The notes: generated by a model not told the origin, from the letters alone. A stretch of 64,000 nt of DNA from Dictyostelium discoideum (GCA_000004695.1 CM000154.2:3264001-3328000), one strand, 5' to 3'; positions 1,129 through 49,499 are shown, counted from the stretch's first letter. Made by a program: numbers and translations.

Positions 1129-1451
1129 TCCCATTTAACTACTCGGATTGTAATCTATTTAATAATTCATCATATTGCAAACACAGCAATAATTTTTAAT
1201 CCATAATACACTATATTTTAAAATTGAAATTAAATAACCCATAATGCACTATGTTTTAAAATTGAAACTCAAATATTAAACTATTAATTTATCTTTAATG
1301 GATAATAATAAACATACAATACATTGAGAAATCTATTGGATTAACACTGATTAAACAATATTATAAATAATATAATCAATTAAAACCAATATTTTATGAC
1401 AATCATTCTTTTTTCTGGATAAAGATATAAAACTTTATTTTGTTTAGATTA

Positions 1452-1878
1452 TTAGTTATTAATTTTTTTACAACATTCACTGAAATGTTTAATTGTATTT
1501 AAAGCTTGTTTTTCATTTGAGAATGGACCTGTTAATCTAAATACAGAGGAGCAAGAAACATAGTTTAAACACATATCATAAAGTTCTGGGTTATTTAATT
1601 TCATTTCATCAAAATCTGGTAAACAATTAATTTGTTTTGCTAATTGATCAGAAAATAAAACATAATCACCAAATGGGAATAATGTCTTCATTTTTGCATT
1701 TCTAATTTCATTAATTTTAATTATATCTTGTCCCATTTCTTTTTCTGAAGGTAAATCTATTAATCCAGAAAATACATAGTTAATCCATCTAGATTGAAGT
1801 TCCAATACTTTTTTATAAAAAAAAAAAAAAAAAAAAAATTAGATTAATATTAAAATTATTATTATAATTATTATTTTA

Positions 1879-1911
<33 letters not shown>

Positions 1912-3137
1912 TTACATGAATAAAATGGAGTACCAAAAATTCCAACTAAACCTAAATTTTTAACTTTATGAGGAAAAGTAAAATTATATAATAAACATGG
2001 TACATAATTATCATTTGGATTAAATGATAATTTTTCTAAAATTTCTTTTTCAAAAAATGAAAAATTTAAATGATAACCAGTTGCAAAGATAATTTCATCA
2101 AATTCAATATTAATTATTGATTGATCCAATTGATTTAAGAATTCCAATGATTTATCATTTGAATTATTTAATAGATGATTTGATAAACATTGAATTTTAC
2201 CTTGTTTAATATTATCAATATAGGAATCGATACAAGTAAATAAAATTTGAAATGGTTTATCAAAATTAGTTTCATCATTTTGATAACTTGGTTCATTACA
2301 ATTATTACCAGATAATTGTTGTAAGAATTTATTCATTGCAAGGTTATATTCATTTTCAGGTAAATCTTTCATTTTATAAGAATTGGCTCTTAAACAGATG
2401 ATTAGGTCCACTGGAACACCATTATCATTTTCATCGATTTCATTACCATTTCCTTTTAATATATTTTTAATTCTTTTACTATTTGAAGGTATTGCCCATT
2501 CATTTAATTTTCCTTCACCATAGAGATAAACACTTTGACAACCTGAATTACAAAGTTCTGAAGCAATTTGTAAACCAGTACATGATTTACCAACAACTAA
2601 AACTCTTTTACCAATATATTCATTTGGTGATTTATATTGATTTGAATATCTATATCCACCAGTAAAATTTTTTAATGGTTCCATTGGAAATTGTCTTGGT
2701 TTATTATTCATTCCATTACCAACAATTAAGAAATCAAAAATTTTTGATTCACTTTTTTTACTTGAGGAATCTGTCCATTGGACTAACCATTTATTATTTT
2801 CGAGTTGTTTTACTTTTTCAACAGTACTACCAAATTTGATACAATTTAAAAGTCCAAAATGATTTGCATAATTTGATAGGTATTGATGAACTTTTTTTGG
2901 TGATAAAAATAGATCTTGATCTTCTGGATGTTGGAAATCTGAAAATGTCATTGAAAAATGAGATACATTGGTATGCATTGAATCCCAAGGTATAGCTTCA
3001 TCAAGTGACCAAACTCCACCAAATGTTTCTTTTTTTTCAAAAACAGTTGGTTCTAAACCACATTCTAATGCTGATTTACATGATGTTAAACCTGATGGAC
3101 CACTTCCAATTATACAAACTGTTTCACATCTATTCAT
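1452..3137 (-). CDS. Flavin-containing monooxygenase (FMO), about 525 aa, two exons: complement(join(1452..1807,1916..3137))
   Basis: The N-terminal FAD motif is IIGSGPSGL and the second dinucleotide motif is VLVVGKSCTGLQIA. The FMO signature FATGY is present. Donor TCAT|GTAATT and acceptor AAAAAG|TA give phase 1 on both sides, and the 108-nt intron is AT-rich. The downstream ORF 1452..1805 continues in frame; the ORF track shows its first codon as M, but it is a TTG. Confidence 0.8.
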
Positions 3138-3737
3138 TTTAAAAATAATAAAAATAGAATTTTTTTTTTTTTTTTTATACTAAAAAAAAATTTTTTTTTT
3201 TTTTTTTTTTTGATTTTATAAATCTTTTAAAAACTGAAACGACTTTTTATAATAATAAAAAAAAAAAAAACGGTTTTAGATTTTAATTTTTAAAATATCT
3301 TTTTTTTTTTTGAAAATTTTATTTTATTTTTTTTTTTTTTTTTCAAAAAAATTTTCAATTATTAAATCTGGGGTGGTTAGGATATTTTTAAATTTATTAT
3401 TTATTTTTTACAATTAAACCAATATAATGAAAAAGAAATTAATAAATTAAAAAAAAAAAAAACAATACATTTTTTAGTATTCTTAAAAAATAAAATAAAA
3501 AAAAAAAAAATAAAAAAAAAAAAAATATGATATAATTTAAAAGGAGATGAAAAAAAAAAAGGAATAAAAAAAGAAAACGATAATAAAATTTTATTTAAAA
3601 TTAAAAGTTTATTTATTTATTCATTTATTTATGTATTATTAAAATCTAGTAATTTTTGGTCTTAAATGTTTTTTTAAAAAATTCAATTATCATAATTTTA
3701 ATAAAAAGAAAAACATAAATATATTAATAGATTTATT

Positions 3738-3850
3738 TTTATTTATATTTATATTTTTATTTATATTTTTATTTTTATTTTATTTTTATTTTTATTTTTA
3801 TTTTTATTTTTATATTTAAGTTTTTATTTTTATATTTAAGTTTTTATTTT
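3738..3850. repeat. Tandem (ATTTTT)n / 'tttatatttaag' minisatellite in an intergenic A/T desert
   Basis: Direct reading shows more than 12 consecutive 'attttt' units and a duplicated 25-bp 'tttttatttttatatttaag' block. Confidence 0.6.
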
Positions 3851-4014
3851 ATACTATTTTAAAATCAATTTTCATTTATTATTCACTATCATATTAATAT
3901 TCACTGTAATCCTCACCACCTCCACAGTGGTCATCATAATCTTCATCATAATCTTCATATTCTTGATCAAGATTTAAAAAATTTTGAATAAAATCTGAAT
4001 ATGAACGAGATATT

Positions 4015-5207
4015 TTATTTGCCTTTTTTTAATAATGTTTCAGATTTTTCTTTATTTTCATAACCTTTACAATTTAATAACATATCAGAGTAAGAAATAA
4101 TTGATTTGATAAAACTATATTTAACACCCAATTCGTAATAGTATTCACTCTTTTCTAAATCTATATCTATACCATCAATACCAAATTGAAATAAATAACC
4201 AAGTGAATTCAAAGACTCTAAAACATATATATTTGAATCTGTAAAGAATGAGCTATCACCATAATCATCTTGATCATCATCATCAAAATGAAGTGGTTTA
4301 AGACTTGCTTCATATAATAATGATAAACCAATGTTTGAATCTTTCTTTAATTTATCTACACCAACACCAATTAAATATAATGTTGAAAGATGAAAAAACC
4401 CATTTGATATATTACTTTCTTTAATTGATTTTGAAAAATATTTATATGCATTTCTATAATCTTCATATTCAAACATATACTCTTCACCAACATTATTTAA
4501 ATGATTAATTGTAATACGATTTTGACTTAAACTAGTTGAAATCATTTCTTCAACCATACCCAATTGATCGATTAGTATTGGTAAATAGCCTTTAAAGAAT
4601 GAATTGAATTTATGTTTTTCAATGAATAATTTAGCTTCATTTTCAAAGTTTCTAATATCACCAAATAAAGTTGAATTTCTATAATTCAATTTTTCATTTA
4701 CCAATTTTTTAAAATCAGTTACCTCTTTACATGATGGATTTAATTGATCAGCAGCTCCTAAAAATTGAATTGATTCATTATATTTTCCTTGAAATGATAA
4801 AATTTGAGATAATCTAAAATAACTACGATAAAACAATGGTGATTGTTTCATTGATTCAAATGAGTCAATTTTACTTTCTTCCAAGAGTGATCTAAATTCA
4901 TTTGGTTCAAAATTATTTAACTCTCTTGATAAATGCACTTTTTCATATCCTTTTAATGAACTTAACTTATAATATTCAAATTTTGAAATTGATCTATTTA
5001 AATAAAGTAATGATTTTAATTCACATAAATCCATACCACTTTTTTCAATTGGTGATTCTTTATTATAACCATTTAATTGATCAATACCCTTTGTATAATA
5101 TTCAATTGCTAAATTATAATTTTTTTTTGTATATTCAATATTACCAAGTTCTTTTAATTTAATTGATTCTTCAATTTTATTTTCTTTTTTTGTTGTGATT
5201 TTTGAGG

Positions 5208-5238
<31 letters not shown>

Positions 5239-5924
5239 ATTAGTGTTAGTTTTATTTGATAAATTTGATTTGGAATTTGGAATTTTATTAGTTGATTGTT
5301 GTGGTTTTTGAATATTTACTATATCCATAGTTTCAATTGATTGAATTGTATCTTCTAATTCACCTTTTAAATAATCATTCATTTCAATTAAAATATTAAT
5401 TAAATTTTGTTTTATATTTTTTAATTCACTTTCTTCAATTTTAAAATCTTTAATTAATATAACTTTTTTAAAAATTATAAAAAAAAAAAAAATATTGTTA
5501 ATTTTATAATTATTAATTTATTTTTAAAAGTAAATTAATTAATTAACTTACAATTATCATTAATTTGATTAATACTTGAAATTTGTTTATTTTCAAATGA
5601 TAATTTTTCTTTATCATTAATTTTGGTAAAATTGAAATTAATTAAAAGTGATGATAATAATTGTACATTGAAAGAATTGAGGTTTCCATTTGAAATAATA
5701 CTTTTTTGATAAAAATTATGGTCATTTGTTAAACAATTTGAATTGGTAAAGTGAGGATTCATACAAAGGAATTTATAAATTAACTCTCCATACTCTTTAC
5801 AATCTACCCAAGGTTTACCAATTTCAATTAACCAACGTTCTTTAAATTTATTTTCTAAAATTTGTTTAATCTTGATATTAATAATATTTGATAATTTAAA
5901 ATAATTAATAATATTATTTTTCAT
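4015..5924 (-). CDS. TPR-repeat protein, about 606 aa, two exons: complement(join(4015..5462,5552..5924)); the ORF-track entries 5535..5924 and 4015..5382 belong to one gene
   Basis: GATAATT|GTAAGT is the donor at 5551 and TAAAAAAG|TT the acceptor at 5463, with phase 1 matching on both sides. The splice joins MKNN...INDN to ...ILIKDFKIEESELKNIKQNLINILIEMNDYLKG in frame. TPR-like helices (LGNIEYTKKNYNLAIEYYTKGI) and a poly-Thr tract are present. Confidence 0.7.
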
Positions 5925-6256
5925 TTTTTTTTTTTTTTTTTTTTTTTTATTATTATTTATTAAGAAAGAGAGAGAGGGAGAGAATATATTTGTAAAAAAA
6001 AAAAAAAAGAGGAAATAATAATAATAAAAAAAAAAAAATTAAAAAATAAAAATACAAAAAAAAATAAAAAAAAAAAAAAAAAAAAAAAAGTGTTTTGAAC
6101 AACACCACATTTGGAAATTAAAAAAAAAAAAAAAATATAAAAAAAACAGTAATAACACATTTTTTTTTTTTGTTTTTTTTATTTTATACGAAAAAAAGTG
6201 CACTGAGAGTGAAATAAATAATGTTTTTTTTTTTGTTTTGCTTTTTTTTTTTTAGA

Positions 6257-9200
6257 TTAACCAAATTTTGGGAAATAATTCATTATTGTTTTCCAGTAAC
6301 TTTCTGGATGGGTTGAACAATGATTTTGATAAAAATGTATAAATAGTGTTCTAATTTGAGTAAGTCTTTGTTTTCTTCTTTCTTCAATCTCTTTGAAACT
6401 TAATGATTGACTATGATGACTATGTTGTTCATTTATATTTGATGTTGATTTTGATTTTTCATTATTATTATTATTTTGATTTTGATTTTGATTTTGATTT
6501 TGATTTTGATTTTGATTTTGATTTTGACCAACTTTATTAAGATTATTAATTTGATTTACTTTATTATTTGGTTGATTTTTGGTATTAATTTGATTTTTTA
6601 AAGTATCAAAATATTTATTTTCAAAAGAGAAAGCATTATCCCAACTTTGAGCTAAGCAATCACTATCATTATCTTCATCATCTGAAACCAATTTATGAGA
6701 TTTATCCTCTTCAGTCTCTTCACTTTGTTCACTACCAGTGAAACTACTAGATGGATGATAATTCTTTGGAGTTGAACCACCACCACTATTCAATGAACCA
6801 ATAATTCTTTTTTCAGTGAATGAACCCATCAATTGCCAACTACCACCAATTTCTGGTTCAACTTGAATATCATCATCTGATCCTCTTCTTCTCTTTGGTC
6901 CATTTGGTACATCCATTGGTATACTCGTACCTGAAGTTGCTGGTGATGTATGTAATTGGTGATGACCATGATGACCATGATGTCCATGATGTGATTGTTT
7001 AATCATAATAGATGATGATCCAAAACTACCAGCTATATTATTATTACTATTCATTGGTGAGTGAGAAATTGGTGTTGGCGGAGCTGATGTATTATTATTA
7101 TTGGTACTATTATTGGTACTATTATTGTTAGTGTTATTATTATTATTAAAATTATTATTATTATTATTATTACCAACTTTATTCATACCAATAAATAATT
7201 TTGGAGAATTATTTTGAGGAGTTACTGGTGCAGATTGAGAAATATCAATACCTTTTGTATTCCAACTACTTGGTGAAGAGTTTTTGTGTCCACCAATATT
7301 ACTATTATTATTACTATTTGATTTGTTTGATTTGTTTATATTTTTTACATTATTATTATTATTATTATTATTGTCTACAATATTTTTTCTATCTACATAA
7401 TTATTTACAATCTCTAATGGTTGTTGAGAATTTGAATTTTTACGATTACCAGTTGGAGTATTACCTTTATTATTTACAGATTGTTGTGATTGTGCTTGTT
7501 GTAACTGTTGTTTTAGTAATCCCATACCACTATTATTTGTAGTTTGTTGTTTTTCTTGTTGTTTATCTTGTTGTTTATCTTGTTGTTGTTGTTGATTTAA
7601 TTTATTAAAAGTATGAATTGAAAAATCCATTGAAGAGATGAAATCCAAGAAATAAAAACAGAAATAAAATATATCTTCACCTTTACCAGCTCTATCACAA
7701 AGTTGATGAGAGAATAAGAACCAATCGTAGGCAACCGTTAAAAAGAGCATTTCCCAATCCTTTAAAGATTGATGAACCTCACCATCAGCCCAAAGACTGA
7801 TTCTAAGTAATGAAATAAACAATGGTGTTCTATCCCATCCAGATATACAATGAACTAATAAACCAGATGGGTTATTATCATCAGATACATATTTTAATAA
7901 TAACTTGAAATAATTTTGTGTTAAATTTACTATTAAAAAGAGAAAAAAAAAAAAAAAAAATAATAGTTAATATATATCTATTTTTTTTTTATTTTTTTAT
8001 TTTTTAATATTAATATACTTACTTAAATCCCAAGTTTTATAAGATTCCCATGGTATCATTGGTAATTGATGATCTGGATGTAAATTTAATTCTGCTGGAT
8101 CTTCAATACCATCCCAAGAATAAAATAAATCTTTTCCACAATGTTGATTTCTATTAAAATCTGCAAAAAATTCTACACCAGGATAAGGAGTAGAAGAAAT
8201 TACAAAATCTTGATATCTTCGATGCATATCAACTTTTTCTGATGAACAAACAAAGAAACCAAACCTTTTTTTTTTTTTTTTAAAAAAATAAAAAATAAAA
8301 ATAAAGGTTAATGAAATTTGTTTTTATTATAATTATTATTATTATTTATTACTTACTTTTTCTTTTTATTTTCAACCATTAAATCACAAATGTATCTAAT
8401 ATTTAAATGTTTAATAACTAGAATATCATTATTTCTAAGATGTTCCATATCTAATTGTTGTTGTGCCTGTTGTTGTCGTATTTGAGTTGACTGTTGTTGT
8501 GCTTGTTGTTGATCATGTTGGCCTTCAACATGTGAATCATGATGTTGATAATGTTGATTAATAACTGAAGAAGTCATTGTACTATCATTTTTATTTAATC
8601 TATCAATATCAATTGAATCTTCAATCATACTATTAGTAATTGGATTATTTTGATTATTATTATTATTATTATTTTGATTATTATTATTATTATTAATTTG
8701 ATTATTATTATTATTTTGATTATTATTATTATTTTGATTATTATTATTATTACTAAACATTATAGATTGTGATAAAGAAGAAGTTGTTGGAGATGGAACA
8801 GAAGAAAATTGTTTTTTCATTGAATTAACACCAGATTGAAACATATATTCAATCTTTTGAGAGAGTGTTGAGGATCTACAAAGATTTTTATGATGATAAA
8901 ATATAACTGGAAATGGGAATCTTGTTCTTACACGTGCAAATCTAGATTGATCCAATAATTTTTCTAAATTACGAGAGAGTTCTGGATGAACGTGTTTATT
9001 CTTTTCTTTACATACTTTACATCCTGTCTCTAACTCGTGTTCAATAAAAATTAAATCTGGTGGGTATGTTGCGCATAATTCACCTTCTTTATTATTGATT
9101 AATGATATTTTATAATCTTTTTCAAATAATGTATTTACAATTTCTTGATATTTAAATAATTCCTTGTTTTTTTGTTTTGTTGTTGTTTTGTTTTAAATTA

Positions 9201-10463
9201 ATTAAATAATAAAAAAAAAAAAAAATTATTTAATATTAATATATATAATTATATAATATTAATAATAATTATTTTAAACTTACTTCATCTCTTTTACCAG
9301 GGAATGGTTGTTTATATCTTCTAAAATGAGCAAACATTTCGGCTAATTCAGATGCCAATGAATCACCACATGCAAGCGAGGGGTTAACTTCAAAAGAGTT
9401 CATTGTATTGGCATCGTTTGTCGTATTATCACCATTTGACGATATATCTTCAGAGACAACTATAGATGGTTCATCATCGTCATTGCTATTGATTGTGTTA
9501 TTATTATAGGAAACGAATTCTCTCTACTTATATTGCAAGTATTATTATTACTACTGCTGTCACTATTATTATTATTGTTTTTATTATTATTATTATTATT
9601 GTTATTATTATTATTATTACTGCTGCTGTTACTACTACTACCACTACTATCGTTTTCGACAGATTTTTTAGGGGATTGTGAACAAGGTGTATTTGAAGGC
9701 TTTATTGAAGAAATTAATTGTTCTGTTGTTGAGGATGGTGGTGTGCTAGAGGTAATTACCATTTTAATGGATTTGTTTTTTTAATGAGGTGAAAGTAATT
9801 GAGCGTATTCCTAGTGTGTGTCTTTTTTTTTTTTTTTTTTTTTTTTTTTNNNNNNNNNNNNNNNNNNNNNNNNNNNNNNNNNNNNNNNNNNNNNNNNNNN
9901 NNNNNNNNNNNNNNNNNNNNNNNNNNNNNNNNNNNNNNNNNNNNNNNNNTTCAAATAATGTATTTACAATTTCTTGATATTTAAATAATTCCTTGTTTTT
10001 TTGTTTTGTTGTTGTTTTGTTTTAAATTAATTAAATAATAAAAAAAAAAAAAAATTATTTAATATTAATATATATAATTATATAATATTAATAATAATTA
10101 TTTTAAACTTACTTCATCTCTTTTACCAGGGAATGGTTGTTTATATCTTCTAAAATGAGCAAACATTTCGGCTAATTCAGATGCCAATGAATCACCACAT
10201 GCAAGCGAGGGGTTAACTTCAAAAGAGTTCATTGTATTGGCATCGTTTGTCGTATTATCACCATTTGACGATATATCTTCAGAGACAACTATAGATGGTT
10301 CATCATCGTCATTGCTATTGATTGTGTTATTATTATTATTTGGTATTATTGGTGATATTGGACTTGGAATATCTTCATTGTTATTACTATTATTATTATT
10401 ATTATTATTTACATTTGGTTCATATGATACTTTTTTAAATTGCTTTGGTATATATGTATTTTC

Positions 10464-10505
<42 letters not shown>

Positions 10506-10958
10506 GTTATTGTTATTAGTACAATTATAGCTTTCATTTATTAAAATTTCGGATTTAGAATTTAATATCTCTTCATTTCTGCTGTTGTTATTATTATTGT
10601 CACAACTATTATTATTATTACTATTATTATAGGTTTCATTATTCTCTTCTACAGCAACTGCTTCTTCTAATGTTAAATCCATCATGAAAGGAAACGAATT
10701 CTCTCTACTTATATTGCAAGTATTATTATTACTACTGCTGTCACTATTATTATTATTATTATTGTTTTTATTATTATTATTATTATTATTATTGTTATTA
10801 TTATTATTATTATTATTACTGCTGTTACTACTACTACCACTACTATCGTTTTCGACAGATTTTTTAGGGGATTGTGAACAAGGTGTATTTGAAGGCTTTA
10901 TTGAAGAAATTAATTGTTCTGTTGTTGAGGATGGTGGTGTGCTAGAGGTAATTACCAT
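6257..10958 (-). CDS. Myotubularin-related phosphoinositide 3-phosphatase (CX5R active site HCISGWDRT), at least 4 exons: complement(join(6257..7929,8023..8238,8357..9162,[gap],10113..10958))
   Basis: Recalled MTM1 shows three collinear blocks: the catalytic loop VHCSDGWDRT vs LVHCISGWDRTPLFISLL here, the upstream block CETYP...SKFRSKGRFPVLSYYH vs CATYPPDL...SRFARVRTRFPFPVIFYHH here, and a downstream KDW...F.H block. All splice junctions (GTAAGT donors at 10112, 8356 and 8022; AG acceptors at 9163, 8239 and 7930) keep phase. There are very long N/Q-rich insertions. The 5' end passes through the 100-N gap and a duplicated segment (see findings). Confidence 0.75.
9121..9840 (-). pseudogene. Variant second copy of the myotubularin exon-2 5' end + intron 1 + exon 1, carrying a ~350-bp internal deletion that breaks the reading frame (ORF 9460..9762 ends ...FPIIITQSIAMTMMNHL*)
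   Basis: Positions 9121-9500 are essentially identical to 9950-10330 and 14881-15260. The copy then jumps to the equivalent of 10690 ('gattgtgttattattatag|gaaacgaattc'). It abuts the N-gap, so it may be a collapsed-repeat assembly artefact or a real tandem partial duplicate. Confidence 0.5.
9850..9949. other. Assembly gap (100 N)
   Basis: A run of exactly 100 'n' sits between poly-T at 9830-9849 and duplicated sequence that resumes at 9950. Confidence 0.99.
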
Positions 10959-11553
10959 TTTAATGGATTTGTTTTTTAATGAGGTGAAAGTAATTGAGCG
11001 TATTCCTAGTGTGTGTCTTTTTTTTTTTTTTTTTTTTTTTTTGGTTTTTTTTTTTTTTTAATTTATTTATTATTTTTTTTTTTTATTTTTTCTATTTTTT
11101 TTTATATTTTTTATTTTATTTTTTTTTTTTTTTATTTTGGTTTTTTTGAGTTTAACTTAATAAAAAAAAAAATAAAAAAAAATAAAAAAAAATAAAAAAT
11201 AAAAATTAAAAAAAAAAAAAAAAAAAAAAAAATAAAATAAAATAAAATAAAAAAAAAAATAAAGATAAACCTGAAAAAGAGAAATGATTATTTAAATATA
11301 CCTCTTTTTTTTTTAAGATTTAATTTTATATGTATTCAATATTTTTTATTTTAAAATTTAAATATCCATTTACAAACCAATTTTCAAAATTATTATTCAA
11401 GTTATCCAATAAAAATAGGCAATTTTCAATGACTAAAAAGGAAATACCATAAAGTTAAGATAGAATTAAATACATAATTAAGGAATTGATTTTTTTATTT
11501 TTTTTTTTTTTATTGGAATTGTTTAATTTAACCTAATGTTATTTTTCTGAATT

Positions 11554-13147
11554 CTATTTAATTATTTTTACATTTTTTGAAACATAAGGTTCAATTTGAT
11601 GTTTAAAACTTGTGAAAACTTTTACTTCCTTTACAGTATTAGGAATTGAACCAATTATTAATTCTTGTTTAATATCGCCTAAACGCAACGATTCAACACC
11701 ATCTGGTAATATACCTGGTGTTAATTTTTGATTGAATCCATCTTTTAAAGTAACACGAGTTACAGTATTAGGAATTGAACCAATTATTAATTCTTGTTTA
11801 ATATCGCCTAAATACAAGGATTTAACACCATCTGGTAATATACCTGGTGTTAATTTTTGATTGAATCCATCTTTTAAAGAGACAAGAGTTACAGTATTAG
11901 GAATTGAACCAATCATTAATTCTTGTTTAATATCGCCTAAATACAACAATTTAATACTATCTGGTAATATACCTGGTGTTAATTTTTGATTGAATCCATC
12001 CAATAAAGAGACATGAGTTACAGTATTAGGAATTGAACCAATCATTAATTCTTGTTTAATATCACCTAAATACAAGGATTTAACGCCATCTGGTAATATA
12101 CCAGGTGTTAATTTTTGATTGAATCTATCCAAGAGCATTACAGTAGATGGTAATTGATTTTTTAATTTTGATAAAATATTACAATTGTCTTTGAATGCTA
12201 TACCTTCATTCTCCTTAAATTTAAATGAATCATCCTCTATATAAACATAAAACTTTGAACTATCCCCTATATTTGGTAATTAGAATGATGTAAACATAAT
12301 TTATAAAAAAAACTGTATAAAGCTTACATTTAAAAAATTTATTTTTATTTTCATCGATTTCAATTATAAATCTACAATTATCTAAGGTATAAATTGATTT
12401 TAAATTATTTTTAATATCATCAATTATTTGATTATGGAAATGAATGATTTGATTATCGTATTCATTTAATTTATTTGAATTATTGATATTATTATTATTA
12501 TTTAATACTATTAATGATTGTTGATATTGTTTAATAATTTTAATTGTATCTCTATCAATAATAAAATCTTCTCCATTATCATAAATTTGTTGATCATTAA
12601 ATTTTATAATTTCATTTAATTTTTCAATAGTTGTAGTTCTATCATTTTCATTTTCATTATTATTATTAATTATAGTTGAAAGTATTTGATTATCATTATT
12701 GATTGAAGAAGTTATAATTGTATTTATTAATGTATTATTTTCAAAGGTTGTTTCTAATTGTTTTTTAATATCTAATTCTATGATTGAAATGATATCATGA
12801 ATTTTTTTAATTTCTTTTTTTAATGAATTATTATTAATATCAAATTGTGATTGAATTTCATTGTATTTATCATTTGATTCTTGTAATATTGTTTCATTGA
12901 TTTCTATTCTTTCAATTACTTTTTGGTATATATCATTTTTAAAATTATTCATTAATGAAAGAATATTTGAAGTTGATTCTAATGGATCAGTTTTATGACC
13001 ATGATGTTCACCTTTACTTGATGTACATTGAATACAACATGGTATTAATTTACAATCTAAACAAAAGAATACTATATCTTTATTTGGGTGAAGTGTACAC
13101 TTTTTATTATTATCAATATTATTTATTTTATTATGATTTGAAATCAT
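11554..13147 (-). CDS. B-box zinc finger + coiled coil + FNIP-repeat protein (cluster copy 1), about 510 aa: complement(join(11554..12266,12328..13147))
   Basis: The B-box motif is [36 protein letters not shown]. Splice AAAT|GTAAGC...CCAAATATAG|GG runs in phase 1 and creates Trp, joining the B-box exon to ...WDSSKFYVYIEDD...MLLDRFNQKLTPGILPDG. The second exon has about 7 FNIP repeats (FNQKLTPGILPxxVKxLxLGDIKQELIIGSIPNTVT). The start is probably the M of MISNHNK (13147); the longer ORF-track start reads through promoter poly-T. Confidence 0.8.
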
Positions 13148-13494
13148 TGTGTTTGGGATTGGTGTGGATGTAAAAAAAAAAAAAAAAAATTTGGAACCAG
13201 AAATTTTTATATGAGACACCAAAAATAAAAAAAAATAAAAAAAATAAAAATAAAATCGCTTAAAAAATTAAGAAAAACAAAATCTTTTTTTTTTTTTTTT
13301 TTTAAAAAATAAATAAATAATTAAATATTTATATTGTTATTGATAAAAATTTAAAAAAAGGAAAAATATTTTGAATTCAATCGTTAATCATTTTTTTTTT
13401 ATAAAAAAAAAAGATATAATTTAATTATATATACAATGTTTTTTAAATCTCTATTTTTGGAACATTTTAATAGTAAATTAAATTTAAATATGTT

Positions 13495-13575
13495 TGCTGA
13501 CATTAATATGGCTGCTGAAATTAATATGCATGTAAATTAATATGGATGCTAAAATTAATATGGGACACACTATTG
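13495..13575. repeat. Array of 4 tandem ~17-bp units '(c)tg(c/a)(t/a)aaattaatatgg' ending in '...atgggac'; a solo terminus related to the 18706-19322 palindromic element
   Basis: The units read ctgacattaatatgg / ctgctgaaattaatatgc / atgtaaattaatatgg / atgctaaaattaatatgggac. The same motif is the sub-terminal repeat of the TIR element at 19146-19322. The array lies about 350 bp upstream of gene copy 1. Confidence 0.4.
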
Positions 13576-13906
13576 GCAATTTTAAATCACTAAAAAATAT
13601 CATCATGGTACAGCGGATCAATTAAATGGATTTTGTAATTTGAGGGTAAAAACAAATTTACTCAAACCTGGAATTAAATATACCTAAACCCATTCAAATG
13701 TTACCATTTGACGCCATATGGTAGTAAACTACTATTAATCATATTGATTATTTTATTTAAATTTTCAATTAAAACATTACAATGAGCAGTTTTGCGATGA
13801 TTTGCTTTTTTAAAACTCTGTTGGAAAATTATTAATATTTATTATATTTGATGTTATTTCTTCATTTTATCTTGTTTTGTCATGATTAGTAGGTTGGCTG
13901 TACCTG

Positions 13907-14440
13907 TTAACAGTAGTTTCTTACACTCTTTACAGTATTAGGAATTGAACCAATCATTAATTCTTGTTTAATATCACCTAAATACAACCATTCAACACTA
14001 TCTGGTAATATACCTGGTGTTATTTTTTGATTGAATTCATTCAATAAAGAGACACTCGTTACAATATTAGGGATTGATCCAATCTCCAATTCTTGTTTAA
14101 TATCGCCTAAACTCAACCATTTAACACCAACTGGTAAAATGCCTGGTTTTAATCTTTGATTGAATCCATCCAATAAAGAGACATGAGCTACAGTATTAGG
14201 AATTGAGCCAATTATTAATTCTTGTTTAATATCACCTAAATACAAGGATTTAACACCAACTGGTAAAATGCCTGGTGTTAATTTTTGATTGAATCCATCC
14301 AATAGCATTACATTTGATGGTAATTGATTTTTTAATTTTGATGATGAAATATTACAATTGTCTTTGAATGCTATACCTTCATTCTCCTTAATTTTAAATG
14401 AATTACCCTCTATATAAATATAAAACTTTAAATTATCCCC
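13907..14440 (-). pseudogene. 5'-truncated FNIP-repeat exon fragment (about 4 repeats) with a diverged 3' end (...NTVKSVRNYC*)
   Basis: It is homologous to the exon-2 / intron / B-box-exon boundary of the intact copies up to 14440. There the sequence switches abruptly to myotubularin-derived sequence. Its 3' flank is shared with the degenerate fragment at 23845-23925. Confidence 0.6.
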
Positions 14441-14543
14441 TAATGTTGATTAATAACTGAAGAAGTCATTGTACTATCATTTTTATTTAATCTATCAATA
14501 TCAATTGAATCTTCAATCATACTATTAGTATTGGATTATTTTG

Positions 14544-14594
<51 letters not shown>

Positions 14595-15392
14595 TTGATT
14601 ATTATTATTATTTTGATTATTATTATTATTATTACTAAACATTATAGATTGTGATAAAATATAACTGGAAATGGGAATCTTGTTCTTACACGTGCAAATC
14701 TAGATTGATCCAATAATTTTTCTAAATTACGAGAGAGTTCTGGATGAACGTGTTTATTCTTTTCTTTACATACTTTACATCCTGTCTCTAACTCGTGTTC
14801 AATAAAAATTAAATCTGGTGGGTATGTTGCGCATAATTCACCTTCTTTATTATTGATTAATGATATTTTATAATCTTTTTCAAATAATGTATTTACAATT
14901 TCTTGATATTTAAATAATTCCTTGTTTTTTTGTTTTGTTGTTGTTTTGTTTTAAATTAATTAAATAATAAAAAAAAAAAAAAATTATTTAATATTAATAT
15001 ATATAATTATATAATATTAATAATAATTATTTTAAACTTACTTCATCTCTTTTACCAGGGAATGGTTGTTTATATCTTCTAAAATGAGCAAACATTTCGG
15101 CTAATTCAGATGCCAATGAATCACCACATGCAAGCGAGGGGTTAACTTCAAAAGAGTTCATTGTATTGGCATCGTTTGTCGTATTATCACCATTTGACGA
15201 TATATCTTCAGAGACAACTATAGATGGTTCATCATCGTCATTGCTATTGATTGTGTTATTATTATTATTTGGTATTATTGGTGATATTGGACTTGGAATA
15301 TCTTCATTGTTATTACTATTATTATTATTATTATTATTTACATTTGGTTCATATGATACTTTTTTAAATTGCTTTGGTATATATGTATTTTC

Positions 15393-15434
<42 letters not shown>

Positions 15435-16290
15435 GTTATTGTTATTAGTACAATTATAGCTTTCATTTATTAAAATTTCGGATTTAGAATTTAATATCTC
15501 TTCATTTCTGCTGTTGTTATTATTATTGTCACAACTATTATTATTATTACTATTATTATAGGTTTCATTATTCTCTTCTACAGCAACTGCTTCTTCTAAT
15601 GTTAAATCCATCATGAAAGGAAACGAATTCTCTCTACTTATATTGCAAGTATTATTATTACTACTGCTGTCACTATTATTATTATTATTATTGTTTTTAT
15701 TATTATTATTATTATTATTATTGTTATTATTATTATTATTATTATTACTGCTGTTACTACTACTACCACTACTATCGTTTTCGACAGATTTTTTAGGGGA
15801 TTGTGAACAAGGTGTATTTGAAGGCTTTATTGAAGAAATTAATTGTTCTGTTGTTGAGGATGGTGGTGTGCTAGAGGTAATTACCATTTTAATGGATTTG
15901 TTTTTTAATGAGGTGAAAGTAATTGAGCGTATTCCTAGTGTGTGTCTTTTTTTTTTTTTTTTTTTTTTTTTTGGTTTTTTTTTTTTTTTAATTTATTTAT
16001 TATTTTTTTATTTTATTTTTTCTATTTTTTTTTTATATTTTTTATTTAAATTTTTTTTTTTTTTTTTTTTTTTTATTTTGGTTTTTTTTGAGTTAAACTT
16101 AATAAAAAAAAAAAAAATAAAAAAAAAATAAAAAATAAAAATTAAAAAAAAAAAAAAAAAAAAAATAAAATAAAATAAAAAAAAAATAAAGATTAACCTA
16201 AAAAAAGAAATGATTATTTAAATATCCCTCTTTTTTTTTTTAAGATTTAATTTTATATGTATTCAATATTTTTTATTTTAAAATTTAAAT
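14441..16290 (-). pseudogene. Segmental duplicate of the myotubularin 5' region (part of exon 2 with a ~160-bp deletion, intron 1, complete exon 1 15042..15887, promoter), fused to FNIP sequence
   Basis: ORF 15027..15887 is 100% identical to 10098..10958. Positions 14455-14640 match 8561-8760 apart from poly-AAT length. The internal deletion is at 14660 ('gtgataaa|atataactgg'). The copy contains none of the catalytic exons. Confidence 0.65.
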
Positions 16291-16630
16291 ATGTTAAAAC
16301 ACTCTTTTTTTTTTTTTTTTTTTTTTTTTTTCAAGATTCAATTAAACACTGCCCTCTAAAGGAATAAAAGTAACAGTAATGTAAGTATTAAAAAAATTTT
16401 CAATATTATGCAAATTTCCATTATACTATCCTGATTTTTTTGAAATTTCAAAAAAAAAAAATATCTTTTTACAAATTATTATTCAAGTTATCTAATAAAA
16501 ATAGGCAATTTTCAATGACTAAAAAGGAAATACCATAAAGTTAAGATAGAATTTCCCAATTAAATACATAATTAAGGAATTGATTTTTTTTTTTTTTTTT
16601 TTTATTGGAATTGTTTAATTTAACCTAATG

Positions 16631-18518
16631 TTATTTTTCTGAATTCTTTTTAATTATTTTTACATTTTTTGAAACATAAGGTTCAATTTGATGTTTAAAA
16701 CTTGTGGAAACATTTACTTCCTTTACAGTATTAGGAATTGAACCAATTATTAATTCTTGTTTAATATCGCCTAAATTCAACGATTCAAAACCATCTGGTA
16801 ATATACCTGGTGTTAATTTTTGATTGAATCCATCTTCTAAAGTGACACGAGTTACAGTATTAGGAATTGAACCAATTATTAATTCTTGTTTAATATCACC
16901 TAAATCCAACGATTCAACACTATCTGGTAGAATACCTGGTGTTAATTTTTGATTGAATCCATCTTCTAAAGAGACATTCTTTACAGTATTAGGAATTGAA
17001 CCAATCATTAATTCTTGTTTAATATCACCTAAATCCAACGATTCAACACCTTCTGGTAGAATATCTGGTGTTAATATTTGATTGAATCCATCTTCTAAAG
17101 AGACAAGAGTTACAGTATTAGGAATTGAACCAATCATTAATTCTTGTTTAATATCACCTAAATACAACCATTTAACACTATCTGGTAATATACCTGGTGT
17201 TAATTTTTGATTGAATCCATCTTTTAAAGAGACAAGAGTTACAGTATTAGGAATTGATCCAATAATTAATTCTTGTTTAATATCACCAAAAAACAACCAT
17301 TCTACGCCATTTGGTAAAATACCTGGTGTCAATTTTTGATTGAATCCATCCAATAAAGAGACACGAGTTACAGTATTAGGAATTGAACCAATTATTAATT
17401 CTTGTTTAATATCACCTAAATACAAGGATTTAACGCCATCTGGTAATATACCAGGTGTTAATTTTTGATTGAATCCATCCAATAGCATTACATTTGATGG
17501 TAATTGATTTTTTAATTTTGATAAAATATTACAATTGTTTTTGAATGCTGTACCTTCATTCTCCTTAAATTTAAATGAATCACCCTCTATATAAACATAA
17601 AACTTTAAATTATCCCCTATATTTGGTTATTAGAATGATGTAAACATAATTTATAAAAAAAACTGTATAAAGCTTACATTCAAAAAATTCATTATTATTT
17701 TCATCGATTTCAATTTTAAATCTACAATTATCTAAGGTATAAATTGATTTTAAATTATTTTTAATATCATCAATTATTTGATTATGGAAATGAATGATTT
17801 GATTATCATATTCATTTAATTTATTTGAATTATCGATATTATTATTATTATTTAATACTATTAATGATTGTTGATATTGTTTAATAATTTTAATTGTATC
17901 TCTATCAATAATAAAATCTTCTCCATTATCATAAATTTGTTGATCATTAAATTTTATAATTTCATTTAATTTTTCAATGGTTGTAATTCTATCATTTTCA
18001 TTTTCATTTTCATTTTCATTTTTATTATTTTTATTATTAATTATAGTTGAAAGTATTTGATTATCATTATTGATTGAAGAAGTTATAATTGTATTTATTA
18101 ATGTATTATTTTCAAAGGTTTTTTCTAATTGTCTTTTAATATCTAATTCTATGATTGAAATGATGTCATGAATTTTTTTAATTTCTTTTCTTAATGAATT
18201 ATTATTATTATCAAATTGTGATTGAATTTCATTGTATTTATCATTTGATTCTTGTAATATTGTTTCATTGATTTCTATTCTTTCAATTACTTTTTGATAT
18301 ATATCATTTTTAAAATTATTCATAAATGAAAGAATATTTGAAGTTGATTCTAATGGATCAGTTTTATGACCATGATGTTCACCTTTACTTGATGTACATT
18401 GAATACAACATGGTATTAATTTACAATCTAAACAAAAGAATACTATATCTTTATTTGGGTGAAGTGTACATTTTATATTATTATCAATATTATTTATTGT
18501 ATTATGATTTGATACCAT
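16631..18518 (-). CDS. B-box + FNIP-repeat protein (cluster copy 3), about 608 aa, about 9 FNIP repeats: complement(join(16631..17616,17678..18518))
   Basis: The architecture and the phase-1 intron (GAAT|GTAAGC...ATATAG|GG) match copy 1. The ORF is intact, but the usual 5' flank is replaced from 18531 by foreign sequence. Confidence 0.8.
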
Positions 18519-18705
18519 TGTGTTTGGGATTGGTGTGGATGTATTGAGAACCGGTTCTCAATCAATCGCACAACCTATTTATCAAACTAATCAAGGTATA
18601 AAAATGCAACTATAAATGTTACTATGTAAATACAACCATTCAACACTATCTGGTAATATATGTGGTGTTAGTTTTTGATTGAATCCATTTTTTAAATAGA
18701 CATGT

Positions 18706-19949: not shown

Positions 19950-22900
19950 CTATTTAATTATTTTTACATTTTTTGAAACATAAGGTTCAATTTGATGTTT
20001 AAAACTTGTGGAAACATTTACTTCCTTTACAGTATTAGGAATTGAACCAATTATTAATTCTTGTTTAATATCGCCTAAATTCAACGATTCAACACCATCT
20101 GGTAATATACCTGGTGTTAATTTTTGATTGAATCCATCTTCTAAAGTGACACTCTTTACAGTATTAGGAATTGAACCAATTATTAATTCTTGTTTAATAT
20201 CACCTAAATCCAACGATTCAACACTATCTGGTAGAATACCTGGTGTTAATTTTTGATTAAATCCATCTTCTAAAGAGACATGAGTTACAGTATTAGGAAT
20301 TGAACCAATCATTAATTCTTGTTTAATATCACCTAAATACAACGATTCAACACCTTCTGGTAGAATACCTGGTGTTAATTTTTGATTGAACCTATCTTCT
20401 AACGAGACATTCGTTACAGTATTAGGAATTGAACCAATTATTAATTCTTGTTTAATATCGCCTAAATACAACAATCCAACACTTTCTGGTAATATACGTG
20501 GTGTTAATTTTTGATTGAATCCATCTTTTAAAGAGACACTCGTTACAGTATTAGGAATTGAACCAATTATTAATTCTTGTTTAATATCACCTAAATACAA
20601 CAATCCAACACTTTCTGGTAAAATACCTGGTGTTAATATTTGATTGAATCCATCTTCTAAAGAGACAAGAGTTACAGTATTAGGAATTGAACCAATCATT
20701 AATTCTTGTTTAATATCACCTAAATACAACAATTTAACACTATCTGGTAATATACCTGGTGTTAATTTTTGATTGAATCCATCTTTTAAAGAGACAAGAG
20801 TTACAGTATTAGGAATTGATCCAATAATTAATTCTTGTTTAATATCACCTAAATCCAACAATTTAATACTATCTGGTAATATACCTGGTGTTAATTTTTG
20901 ATTGAATCCATCTTTTAAAGTGACACGAGTTACAGTATTAGGAATTGAACCAATCATTATTTCTTGTTTAATATCACCTAAATACAACCATTCAACACTA
21001 TCTGGTAAAATACCTGGTGTTAATTTTTGATTGAATCTATCCAATAAAGAGATATGAGTTACAGTATTAGGAATTGAACCAATCATTAATTCTTGTTTAA
21101 TATCACCTAAATGCAACAATTTAACACTATCTGGTAATATACATGGTGTTAATTTTTGATTGAATCCATCTTTTAAAGAGACACGAGTTACAGTATTAGG
21201 AATTGAACCAATTATTAATTCTTGTTTAATATCGCCTAAATCCAACAATTTAATACTATCTGGTAATATACCTGGTGTTAATTTTTGATTGAATTCATCT
21301 TTTAAAGATACACGAGTTACAGTATTAGGAATTGAACCAATCATTATTTCTTGATTAATATCACCTAAATACAACCATTCAACACTATCTGGTAATATAC
21401 CTGGTGTTAATTTTTGATTGAATCCATCTTTTAAAGAGACAAGAGTTACAGTATTAGGAATTGAACCAATTATTAATTCTTGTTTAATATCACCTAAATA
21501 CAAGGATTTAACACCATCTGGTAATATACCTGGTGTTAATTTTTGATTGAATCCATCTTTTAAAGAGACATGGATTACAGTATTAGGAATTGAACCAATC
21601 ATTAATTCTTGTTTAATATCACATAAATCCAACAATTTAATACTATCTGGTAATATACCTGGGGTTAATTTTTGATTGAATCTATCCAATAAAGAGATAT
21701 GAGTTACAGTATTAGGAATTGAACCAATTATTAATTCTTGTTTAATATCGCCTAAATCCAACAATTTAATACTATCTGGTAATATACCTGGTGTTAATTT
21801 TTGATTGAATTCATCTTTTAAAGATACATGAGTTACAGTATCAGGAATTGAACCAATTATTAATTCTTGTTTAATATCACCTAAATACAAGGATTTAACA
21901 CAATATGGCAATATACCTGGTGTTAATTTTTGATTGAATCTATCCAATAAAGAGATATGGATTACAGTATTAGGAATTGAACCAATCATTAGTTCTTGTT
22001 TAATATCACCTAAATACAAGGATTTAATACTATCTGGTAATATGCATGGTGTTAATATTTGATTGAATCCATCCAATAAAGAGACATGGATTACAGTATT
22101 AGGAATTGAACCAATTATTAATTCTTGTTTAATATCACCTAAATACAAGGATTCAACGCCATCTGGTAATATACCAGGTGTTAATTTTTGATTGAATCCA
22201 TCCAATAGCATTACAGTTGATGGTAATTGATTTTTTAATTTTGATAAAATATTACAATTGTTTTTGAATGCTGTACCTTCATTCTCCTTAAATTTAAATG
22301 AATTACCCTCTATATAAACATAAAACTTTAAATTATCCCCTATATTTGGTAATTAGAATGATGTAAACATAATTTATAAAAAAAACTGTATAAAACTTAC
22401 ATTTAAAAAATTTATTATTATTTTCATCGATTTCAATTATAAATCTACAATTATTTAAGAAATAAATTGATTTTAAATTATTTTTAATATCATCAATTAT
22501 TTGATTATGGAAATGAATGATTTGATTATCGTTTTCATTTAATTTATTTGAATTATTGATATTATTATTATTATTTAATACTATTAATGATTGTTGATAT
22601 TGTTTAATAATTTTAATTGTATCTCTATCAATAATAAAATCTTCTCCATTATCATAAATTTGTTGATCATTAAATTTTATAATTTCATTTAATTTTTCAA
22701 TAGTTGTAGTTCTATCATTTTCATTTTCATTATTATTATTAATTATAGTTGAAAGTATTTGATTATCATTATTGATTGAAGAAGTTATAATTGTATTTAT
22801 TAATGTATTATTTTCAAAGGTTGTTTCTAATTGTTTTTTAATATCTAATTCTATGATTGAAATGATATCATGAATTTTTTTAATTTCTTTTTTTAATGAA

Positions 22901-23220
22901 TTATTATTAATATCAAATTGTGATTGAATTTCATTGTATTTATCATTTGATTCTTGTAATATTGTTTCATTGATTTCTATTCTTTCAATTACTTTTTGAT
23001 ATATATCATTTTTAAAATTATTCATTAATGAAAGAATATTTGAAGTTGATTCTAAGGGATCAGTTTTATGACCATGATGTTCACCTTTACTTGATGTACA
23101 TTGAATACAACATGGTATTAATTTACAATCTAAACAAAAGAATACTATATCTTTATTTGGGTGAAGTGTACATTTTATATTATTATCAATATTATTTATT
23201 GTATTATGATTTGATACCAT
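19950..23220 (-). CDS. B-box + FNIP-repeat protein (cluster copy 4), about 1,069 aa with about 24 FNIP repeats: complement(join(19950..22339,22401..23220))
   Basis: The B-box exon and the intron (AAAT|GTAAGT...ATATAG|GG, phase 1) are the same as in copies 1 and 3. Exon 2 is a single 2.39-kb open frame of near-identical 96-nt FNIP units. Confidence 0.8.
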
Positions 23221-23830: not shown

Positions 23831-23924
23831 AATTATTGTAAAATATTTGATGTTATTTCTTCATTTTATCTTGTTTTGCCATATGATTAGTGGGTTGGTT
23901 GTACCTGTTAATGGTAGTTTCTTG

Positions 23925-25311: not shown

Positions 25312-25368
<57 letters not shown>

Positions 25369-25841
25369 GTTGAAAGTATTTGATTATCATTATTGATTGA
25401 AGAAGTTATAATTGTATTTATTAATGTATTATTTTCAAAGGTTGTTTCTAATTGTTTTTGAATATCTAATTCTACGATTGAAATGATATCATGAATTTTT
25501 TTAATTTCTTTTTTTAATGAATTATTATTAATATCAAATTGTGATTGAATTTCATTGTATTTATCATTTGATTGTTTTAATATTGTTTCATTGATTTCTA
25601 TTCTTTTAATTACTTTTTGATGTACATCATCTTTAAAATTATTCATTAATGAAAGAATATTTGAAGTTGATTCTAATGGATCAGTTTTATGATCATGATG
25701 TTCACCTTTACTTGATGTACATTGAATACAACATGGTATTAATTTACAATCTAAACAAAAGAATACTATATCTTTGTTTGGGTGAAGTGTACACTTTTTA
25801 TTACTATCAATATTATTTATTTTGTTATGATTGGGTGCCAT
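23925..25841 (-). pseudogene. Degenerate fifth B-box/FNIP copy: frameshifted FNIP fragments (23940..24209, 24437..24658) and a B-box exon disrupted by a unique ~230-bp insertion and an (AAT)n expansion (25300-25370)
   Basis: The B-box motif is intact at 25700-25800. The coiled-coil part is interrupted at 25090-25320, and a poly-Ile readthrough '[10 protein letters not shown]' replaces the normal sequence. Several FNIP units have indels ('gattgaatca tcttttaaag'). Confidence 0.6.
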
Positions 25842-49120: not shown

Positions 49121-49455
49121 AATAAAAAAATTTTAAAAGTAAATTTTACTTTTTTTCTTTATAGAAAAATCTATCATTTAAATATCAAAAAAAAAAAAAA
49201 AATCTATCACAAAAATCTTTTTAGAAAGATAAAAAAACAAAAAGGTTTGGATAAATTATTTAGTGAGAGGCTTCAAATATAATAAATAAAAAATAAATAT
49301 AAAAAATTAATTTCTGAGTCTGAGGTTGAAGTCACACAATTTTTAATTTTTTTATTTTAATTATTTATTATTTTAAATCAATTTTCAAAAATACTGTTTT
49401 TGAGATTGGCATTTTTTGGTGTTTTGAAGATATTTTTTTCGATAGTTAGTTTTTT

Positions 49456-49499
<44 letters not shown>

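Follow-up and report, generated by a model that had tools for sequence, protein, structure and literature searches.

How did the 5′ end of a phosphatase gene come to be present twice within an array of B-box/FNIP genes on chromosome 5 of Dictyostelium discoideum AX4, and does the second copy retain any coding capacity? The original prediction, made for a window of 64,000 nucleotides of the reference assembly, was a very recent tandem duplication of one whole unit consisting of the phosphatase 5′ end, the adjoining intergenic DNA and a B-box/FNIP gene. We compared the window with contig L001 of GCA_054883475.1, an independent, gap-free assembly without any N. Judging from its near-identity to the window, this assembly is probably AX2-214; elsewhere in the window the two sequences differ by only 0–3 mismatches per 5–9 kb block, and they therefore belong to the same strain lineage.

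An intact phosphatase gene and its truncated copy

The locus appears, from its reading frames and homology, to contain one intact gene for a phosphoinositide phosphatase of the MTMR14 (Jumpy) type. Frames and splice sites define a gene body at 6257–9507 on the minus strand, continuous with L001: exon 4 (6257–7929) carries the catalytic motif VHCISGWDRT, a CX5R active site of the C(S/I)xGWDR type; exon 3 occupies 8023–8264 and exon 2 8357–9162, with intron 1 beginning at 9163; and the sequence above 9269 belongs to the 3′ part of exon 1. The true exon 1, of 282 codons with the donor GAA|GTAAGT, is found at 10113–10958 (minus strand). The product read from its ATG at 10958 has 1188 aa, and the gene called in L001 begins at the corresponding position and is equally long. 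The protein is 47% identical over 419 aa to a JGI “myotubularin-related protein 14” (BLASTP, E = 3e-126); the Pfam Myotub-related domain (PF06602) falls just short of its 25-bit cut-off, at 24.7 bits, and the full-length low-complexity protein gave no PF06602 match.

Alignments bear out the predicted repeat: 8549–13172 and 14441–18543 are adjacent, co-linear direct repeats on the gene (minus) strand, with the phosphatase 5′ end, shared intergenic DNA and a B-box/FNIP gene in the same order, so that each phosphatase 5′ end adjoins a B-box/FNIP gene in direct orientation. Self-alignment places the similarity in unique sequence and not only in AAT/CAA repeats (8894–9507 equals 14652–15265 at 100% over 614 bp; 9950–11365 and 14879–16292 match at 97.6%). 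The second copy was expected to lack the catalytic part of the gene, and it does so in two independent assemblies; L001 has the same two-copy layout as the window, with the intact 1188-aa gene and a truncated copy 5.05 kb upstream.

This truncated duplicate (copy C; 14441–15925, minus strand) holds the promoter-proximal region, exon 1 (15042–15887, minus strand, as assembled in the window), intron 1 and the first third of exon 2, and it matches the parent exactly in intron 1 and over about 60 bp ahead of the ATG. It ends at a novel junction between the two repeat blocks (14441–14442), where parental exon 2, at the equivalent of 8549, meets an FNIP intron end and exon 2 start with a shared “TA”, a microhomology of 2 bp in a three-sequence comparison. 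The original prediction had proposed that FNIP or low-complexity repeats mediated the event; the sole novel junction instead lies between unique exon 2 sequence and an FNIP intron's 3′ splice site. Beyond the junction lies a promoter-less FNIP fragment (13907–14440, minus strand), comprising exon 2 only, with three repeats, a 3′ end of the type seen in the distal paralogue g4, and neither B-box exon nor intron. This fragment, abutting copy C, is the fifth FNIP piece of the window.

Two deletions disrupt the copy. Exon 2 has lost 118 bp at about 14651–14657, flanked by the direct repeat TGATAAA, and conceptual translation of the window sequence meets a stop right after this deletion; exon 1 in L001 has lost 352 bp. 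Both lengths are 3n+1 and hence frameshifting, and the open reading frames of copy C in L001 span only 100, 44 and 41 aa, the 100-aa frame being that of exon 1. The coding limit of copy C would thus be about 100 aa of low-complexity N-terminus, and the copy is most likely without function. With the parental intron and upstream region retained, and the frame truncated within exon 2 and broken by both deletions, copy C reads as an unprocessed pseudogene fragment inside a tandem FNIP array. A processed retrocopy, which would be free of introns and have a poly-A tail and target-site duplications, is ruled out: intron 1 is kept, and the untranscribed upstream DNA is continuous with an older paralogous flank.

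The assembly gap and the two versions of exon 1

The original prediction gave a first exon of 286 aa as 100% identical in the two copies. This is true of the window as assembled, where the open reading frames at 10098–10958 and 15027–15887 (both minus strand) are identical, but copy C in L001 lacks the 352 bp corresponding to window 15266–15617, and an intact second exon 1 is therefore not upheld by the gap-free assembly. The window has a gap of 100 N (9850–9949), overlooked in the original prediction, inside the parental 5′ end (“copy 1” of the repeat), which is closed by overlap in L001. The flanks of the gap are redundant: 9950–10336 (minus strand) is the same DNA as 9121–9507, containing the end of exon 2, intron 1 and the 3′ part of exon 1, and both map onto L001rc 8403–8789. 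L001 joins window position 9507 directly to 10337, and the 829 bp made up of 9508–9949 and 9950–10336 have no counterpart at that place.

At the left edge of the gap, 9508–9849 (minus strand) carries the 5′ part of exon 1 in its copy-C version, ending in poly-T and marked by the 352-bp deletion junction, a 15-bp deletion, ATT/GTT/CTG variants and T7. Window 8894–9847 (954 bp) agrees at 100% with the copy-C locus of L001, L001 copy C has the repeat variants seen at window 9508–9848, and every diagnostic variant is swapped between the copies when the window is compared with L001. A third start of the 286-aa frame (9460–9762, minus strand; 100 aa) would be a spurious product of this misplaced sequence. 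The exchange of variants indicates that window 9508–9848 is really copy-C sequence and that window 15266–~15925 is really copy-1 sequence. The AX4 reference thus appears to have blended reads of two near-identical copies: at the gap's left edge the parental gene would have received the copy-C version of exon 1, and copy C would have been given that of copy 1. As the two versions are swapped at the gap, the identity of the 286-aa first exons is best read as an artefact of the reference assembly.

Divergence along the repeat and relationships in the FNIP array

The two halves of the repeat differ in age. Over 1121 aligned bp of the phosphatase-derived part, microsatellites excluded, we found 0 point substitutions. 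The intergenic DNA between the parental gene and the first B-box/FNIP gene (IG1, 10959–11553) and its paralogue (IG1′, 15926–16630) differ at 11 of 302 positions (3.6% point substitutions), with several indels including a 173-bp insertion in IG1′ at 16293–16465; and the B-box exon, intron and start of exon 2 of the adjoining FNIP genes differ at 37 of 1179. Near 11017, a poly-T tract marks the point where divergence from the second copy rises from 0% to about 3%. The FNIP half, predicted to be near-identical, reaches only 92.9–94.6% in BLAST, with ~3% point substitutions, and is no closer than a third paralogue.

The array comprises at least four B-box/FNIP genes, all on the minus strand, and the one FNIP fragment. 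The gene g1 (11554–13147) is DDB_G0289849, an exact match to XP_636010.1/Q54GZ7, with 510 aa and 3.9 FNIP units of 129 bp; g2 (16631–18518) is modelled at 608 aa with 5.9 units, the same product length as in L001; g3 (19950–23220) is modelled at 1069 aa with 16.9 units; and g4 (23843–25841) is a more divergent paralogue, at 6.6–7.6% in the B-box exon. Pfam scores for g1 and g2 are above cut-off for both FNIP (165–212 bits) and zf-B_box (33.5–33.7 bits); FNIP repeats form LRR solenoids, according to PMC9525666. B-box exon distances are 1.5% for g1–g3, 2.5% for g1–g2 and 2.4% for g2–g3, with clustered site patterns. The closest relatives of the g1 B-box exon and upstream region are those of g3; the g1 upstream region matches that of g3 and not that of g2, and together with the 3′ end of the FNIP fragment it is co-linear with the g4–g3 interval (13844–13922 and 23843–23923 are 91% identical). 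The downstream flank is common to g1 and g2 alone.

The contrast between 0/1121 and 11/302 or 37/1179, together with the closer relationship of g1 to g3 than to g2, argues that the unit did not arise in one recent event: divergence is not uniform along the repeat, and the copies are not mutual closest relatives. Part of the jump could be mimicked by a much higher substitution rate in AT-rich intergenic DNA, combined with conversion of the FNIP genes by further paralogues. Simple tandem duplication also fails to predict the present gene order, since g2 is followed neither by a homologue of 13450–13844 nor by one of the FNIP fragment; gene order therefore does not fix the succession of events in the array.

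Proposed history and comparison with known systems

Among outgroups, D. purpureum has one ortholog of the parental gene, with no FNIP gene within 10 kb of it, and D. cf. discoideum has one 5′ end of the phosphatase gene in the 5.7 kb upstream that are readable. We consider it likely that copy C is a pseudogene fragment that arose by duplication in a recombining FNIP array, was later homogenised by gene conversion and is decaying by slippage deletions, and that the window is mis-assembled at it. The junction sequence shows the initial step: a non-homologous duplication with 2 bp of microhomology at its junction, one breakpoint in phosphatase exon 2 and the other where an FNIP intron has its 3′ splice site, brought a copy of the phosphatase 5′ end, along with the flank upstream of it, beside another FNIP gene. 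Unequal crossing-over and gene conversion would then have rearranged the surrounding FNIP genes, as we infer from their mosaic relationships and repeat numbers from 3 to 17, leaving the FNIP genes and the shared intergenic flank now ~3% apart. The discontinuity in divergence suggests a third step, in which homology-driven copying made the phosphatase tract identical to its parent, either by gene conversion or by one-ended break repair that set out from the poly-T tract within the shared intergenic flank. Only slippage-type changes would have followed, including the frameshifting 118-bp and 352-bp deletions; if conversion is ongoing, these two large deletions must postdate the last conversion.

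Other readings account for parts of these observations. One very recent tandem duplication of the whole unit, leaving an intact, promoter-bearing 286-aa first exon, would explain the identical frames in the window and the co-linearity of the blocks through the FNIP gene; it is very unlikely given that the gap-free assembly has no intact second exon 1, that the deleted version of this exon exists in the AX4 data themselves at the gap edge, that divergence jumps at the poly-T tract, and that g1 is nearer to g3 in both B-box exon and upstream region. The window could instead be correct and AX4 truly different, if ectopic exchange between the copies in the AX3/AX4 lineage gave rise to three 5′ ends, of which that on the gene body is deleted, that beside g1 intact and that beside g2 restored. 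A duplication on AX4 chromosome 2 is confirmed (PMC12745789), and a gap of unknown size may hide extra sequence; yet such a rearrangement would need at least two exchanges in a region where the assemblies are otherwise nearly mismatch-free, with redundancy that begins and stops exactly at the assembly gap, and the 614-bp identical core, about one Sanger read, is a classic setting for a mis-join. Weighed on the assembled sequences, a true AX4-specific rearrangement in place of mis-assembly seems improbable. There is next to no likelihood that the duplicate is purely an assembly artefact and that no second copy exists: the gap and its redundant flanks do lie inside the region, but copy C has its own FNIP-fragment junction, its own deletions and a diverged flank with the 173-bp insertion, and it is found in the independent long-contig assembly.

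It is also hard to credit that the duplicated phosphatase promoter drives copy C and the FNIP fragment as a young, functional chimeric gene or as a regulatory RNA. The promoter-proximal sequence and ATG of copy C are the same as in the parent, an AG acceptor is kept at the junction, and the public annotation of GCA_054883475.1 calls a 450-aa product across both parts (L001 7628–9447). However, two frameshifts and many stops lie between them, and exon 1 spliced to the FNIP exon would, as we read the sequence, be out of frame. No model of 450 aa exists with up to four introns of at least 55 bp; when models could have up to six introns, each of 25 bp or more, all 612 listed solutions needed several tiny introns, and each printed example has six, which is typical of a predictor threading a pseudogene.

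The decaying, homogenised fragment that we favour can be set beside several known systems. The parental gene shares the C(I)SGWDR active-site motif of the MTMR14/hJumpy subgroup of myotubularins and differs from it in long asparagine-/glutamine-rich insertions and in its 282-aa low-complexity first exon. The genes g1–g4, with an N-terminal B-box zinc finger and 129-bp (43-aa) repeats, belong with the Dictyostelium B-box/FNIP (FGxxFN leucine-rich repeat) family and add nothing new beyond their 3 to 17 repeats and the promoter-less fragment. Strain-specific duplications of D. discoideum laboratory stocks, such as that of AX3/AX4 chromosome 2 (PMC12745789), likewise place a duplicated segment in the reference genome of this organism, but those span tens to hundreds of kb and vary between stocks, whereas the copy C unit is ~5 kb and occurs in both assemblies; the duplication therefore predates the split of those laboratory lineages. 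The mis-assembly resembles paralogue mis-joins and swaps at gaps of Sanger-era assemblies, where gap flanks are redundant, one paralogue is given variants that belong to the other and a long-contig assembly resolves them; nothing is unusual here, with ~0.8 kb at the gap and ~0.65 kb in copy C affected. Copy C itself most resembles unprocessed pseudogene fragments from tandem segmental duplication, which similarly lie in direct orientation a few kb from the parent, keep intron and promoter, have a non-homologous microhomology breakpoint and decay by frameshifting deletions; it departs from them in being part of a unit of non-uniform age along its length, with a gene-derived tract free of point substitutions relative to the parent and flanks ~3% apart, which points to later gene conversion.

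Repeat structure and an independent assembly of the locus

Self-BLAST of the window with the low-complexity filter off returned co-linear blocks: 8894-9507 is the same as 14652-15265 (100% over 614 bp), and 9950-11365 vs. 14879-16292, 11381-12129 vs. 16466-17221, and 11629-13172 vs. 16979-18543 match at 97.6%, 92.9%, and 94.6%, respectively. The similarity lies in unique sequence and extends beyond simple AAT/CAA repeats; the repeat is therefore real, and comprises an intact MTMR14-like phosphatase gene (the parent, or copy 1) and a truncated 5′ duplicate at 14441-15925 (copy C, or copy 2). A 173-bp stretch (16293-16465) is limited to the intergenic flank of copy C, with alignable sequence on either side, and has no second match within the window.

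The parental copy contains a run of 100 Ns (9850-9949) with redundant flanks: 9121-9507 and 9950-10336 carry one and the same sequence, and the start of the exon-1 ORF occurs a third time, at 9460-9762. The left flank of the gap lacks 352 bp present in the other two versions of exon 1 and has different lengths at several ATT/GTT/CTG repeats. CM142511.1 of a second, gap-free assembly (GCA_054883475.1) also encodes the exact protein of g1, the B-box/FNIP gene next to the parent, and from it we took a 21.6-kb locus with zero N content (L001). Per 5-9-kb block, only 0-3 mismatches and a few indels separate L001 from the window, which places L001 in the same laboratory lineage; as its probable source we infer the Nanopore/Illumina assembly of AX2-214 by Holland et al. 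(N50 of 5.3 Mb; PMC12745789). In L001, window 706-9507 runs straight into window 10337 onward; the gap thus closes by a 387-bp overlap. Moreover, the second copy in L001 lacks window 15266-15617, and window 8894-9847 is identical to that second copy (100% over 954 bp). A five-way alignment showed that window 9508-9848 and the second copy of L001 agree at every diagnostic variant (the 352-bp deletion, a 15-bp deletion, ATT/GTT and CTG variants, and T7 vs. T6), and that window 15239-15975 is of the copy-1 type.

Read most economically, these alignments point to reads having been exchanged, in the AX4 reference, between two copies that share an identical stretch about as long as one Sanger read; window 9508-10336 (829 bases) would then be spurious at that position, and the second copy in the window would hold about 650 bases of the wrong type. 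The window could instead be correct and represent a genuine triplication specific to AX4, but this is improbable, as it requires several exchanges where the sequence is otherwise identical. If reads were swapped, the 100% identity of the 286-aa exon 1 between copies, which had been taken as the mark of a very recent event, stems from mis-assembly at the gap; the second copy of L001 carries the 352-bp deletion. For users of the AX4 reference, the 100-N gap would be closable by deleting window 9508-10336, the corrected second copy would carry the 352-bp deletion, and the MTMR14-like gene would be one intact gene, neither split nor duplicated. Left uncorrected, the locus would mislead gene models, knock-out designs, and read mapping; the practical value of our analysis lies in this correction.

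The phosphatase gene and its truncated copy

The window has a G+C content of 23%, and every gene in the duplicated region lies on the minus strand. Our four-exon model of the parental phosphatase (exon 1, 10113-10958; exon 2, 8357-9162; exon 3, 8023-8264; exon 4, 6257-7929; all minus strand) encodes a 1188-aa product that contains the motif VHCISGWDRT and shares 47% identity over 419 aa with a protein named myotubularin-related protein 14 by JGI. The full-length product gave zero Pfam matches; removal of its asparagine/glutamine runs yielded a borderline match to Pfam Myotub-related, slightly below the cut-off. Low-complexity inserts hide the domain from routine annotation. Homology searches with the N-terminus recovered proteins of D. 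purpureum and distantly related MTMR14-like proteins only, and no D. discoideum protein. An exact-product database look-up returned no record for the 286-aa, 100-aa, and 133-aa ORFs or for the neighbouring gene DDB_G0289781, and no exact match for the spliced models of the phosphatase, of the B-box/FNIP genes g2 and g3, or of the conceptual copy-C product; g1 alone (11554-13147) matched, its translation being exactly DDB_G0289849 of D. discoideum AX4 (XP_636010.1, Q54GZ7). A literature search for DDB_G0289849 and for the accession of the second assembly returned nothing, and no tRNA genes were found in the 64-kb window.

Copy C starts at 14441-14442, where unique phosphatase exon-2 sequence (equivalent to 8549) meets the end of an FNIP intron and the beginning of FNIP exon 2, with ‘TA’ as the only bases shared at the join (sense strand, ATCAACATTAGGGGATAATTT; duplication junction string, ATTATCCCCTAATGTTGATT). 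The FNIP piece to the left of the junction (13907-14440) has three repeats and lacks both a B-box exon and a promoter. From the junction, copy C covers part of exon 2, then intron 1 and exon 1, and extends into the upstream intergenic region; the retained intron rules out a retrocopy. Exon 2 of the copy carries a 118-bp deletion flanked by the direct repeat TGATAAA, and exon 1 in L001 carries the 352-bp deletion (sense-strand junction, CGTTTCCT followed by ATAATAATAAC), each of them frameshifting. The ORFs remaining in the second copy of L001 are 100, 44, and 41 aa long, and in the window version a stop directly follows the 118-bp deletion; an in-frame phosphatase-FNIP fusion is ruled out by stops in all relevant frames. 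The junction lies 1-3 nt from the FNIP intron acceptor (14432-14450), and the AG before FNIP exon 2 is preserved; this proximity is probably a coincidence, and phosphatase exon 1, if spliced to FNIP exon 2, would not join it in frame.

The annotation of GCA_054883475.1 places a 450-aa product at L001 7628-9447, spanning the pseudogene fragment and the FNIP fragment. Models with at most four introns of at least 55 bp gave no solution for this product; 612 solutions appeared when up to six introns of at least 25 bp were permitted, with several tiny introns around the frameshifts and six introns in every printed example. We regard the product as a prediction artefact. From its sequence, copy C appears to be a decaying unprocessed pseudogene fragment, most likely inert, and a real but ordinary partial duplicate of a gene within a recombining array. 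It is very doubtful that copy C is transcribed from the duplicated promoter such that its RNA, a ~100-aa peptide, or FNIP read-through modulates the parent, or that exchange between the copies moves frameshifts into the functional gene and makes laboratory strains differ. The original prediction of a tandemly duplicated unit of myotubularin 5′ exons plus a B-box/FNIP gene thus stands in that the duplicate is real and truncated; its exon 1 in L001, however, is frameshifted, the FNIP genes are not a sister pair, and the age of the unit is not uniform.

Age layers, the FNIP array, and a proposed history of the locus

The phosphatase-derived tract, bounded by the junction and the poly-T tract near window 11017 and compared within L001, shows 8 ‘mismatches’ in 1121 aligned positions, all paired within ATT microsatellites, and therefore zero clean point substitutions; its seven indels measure 1, 12, 3, 118, 352, 15, and 1 bp. 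Substitutions reach 11/302 (3.6%) in the shared intergenic DNA just past the poly-T tract and 37/1179 (3.1%) across the FNIP exon 2 start, the intron, and the B-box exon. The chance of zero substitutions in ~1 kb at 3% is ~e^-30.

Over the B-box exon and intron, distances are 1.5% for g1-g3, 2.5% for g1-g2, 2.4% for g2-g3, and 6.6-7.6% for g4, and the informative sites are arranged in blocks; by these comparisons, g1 and g2 do not form a sister pair. The g4-g3 interval is co-linear both with the upstream region of g1 and with the FNIP fragment at its 3′ end, and the downstream flank leading into phosphatase sequence is common to g1 and g2 alone. The 129-bp FNIP arrays (matches of 83-93% per array) hold 3.9 units in g1 (11631-12129), 3.0 in the FNIP fragment (13923-14304), 5.9 in g2 (16723-17479), 16.9 in g3 (20027-22202), and 5.4 in g4 (23965-24654). 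Such a range among neighbouring paralogues, from 3 to 16.9 units, suggests frequent unequal exchange in coding FNIP repeats, and the array as a whole clearly bears the mark of reshuffling through unequal exchange and conversion. Had the inter-breakpoint interval simply been duplicated in tandem, a gene order other than the observed one would be expected.

In g4, the B-box ORF (25275-25841, minus strand) enters a poly-isoleucine stretch and then a stop (25050-25330); its homologous continuation (…DGEDFIIDRDTIKII) is open in a different frame, which indicates a frameshift in the (AAT)n run, reflecting either a pseudogene or a sequencing error. This part of the window lies beyond L001. Elsewhere in the window, a second tandem pair (49382-52081 and 53424-56122; 90.9% identity over 2.7 kb) carries two 769-aa ORFs on the plus strand (49764-52073 and 53807-56116), and a non-LTR retrotransposon, a 1596-aa gene that encodes Exo_endo_phos and RVT_1 domains, starts at the edge of L001 (21299-21594; window ~706-1001).

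D. purpureum has a single phosphatase ortholog, with zero FNIP genes within 10 kb; the annotation divides it into two models, of 307 aa (DICPUDRAFT_153794) and 743 aa, and tblastn recovers one continuous sequence (GL871114.1; positions 10001-13509 of the extracted locus, L002). In the sister species recorded as Dictyostelium cf. discoideum (~90% identical; JBTAPI010000046.1), one phosphatase 5′ end is present in the readable 5.7 kb upstream, which is mostly retrotransposon: a non-LTR element with a 1308-aa ORF and a reverse-transcriptase-like region (448-4374 of the extracted locus, L003) interrupts the FNIP gene that lies immediately upstream of the phosphatase. As an FNIP gene adjoins the phosphatase in that genome, the adjacency predates D. 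discoideum. B-box exons 92-94% identical to g1 lie on the other side of that locus, past an FMO-like gene (L003 19277-21985).

We propose a history that begins with a non-homologous duplication, demonstrated here, that made the junction. The FNIP array would then have been remodelled, as its mosaics suggest, and later homology-driven copying, to which the sharp divergence switch at the poly-T tract points, would have restored the parental sequence across the phosphatase-derived tract, by gene conversion or by one-ended repair of a break, primed from the shared flank. Slippage-type deletions, likewise demonstrated here, followed. The locus offers a small, clean case in which to measure gene conversion against decay by slippage in an extremely AT-rich genome.
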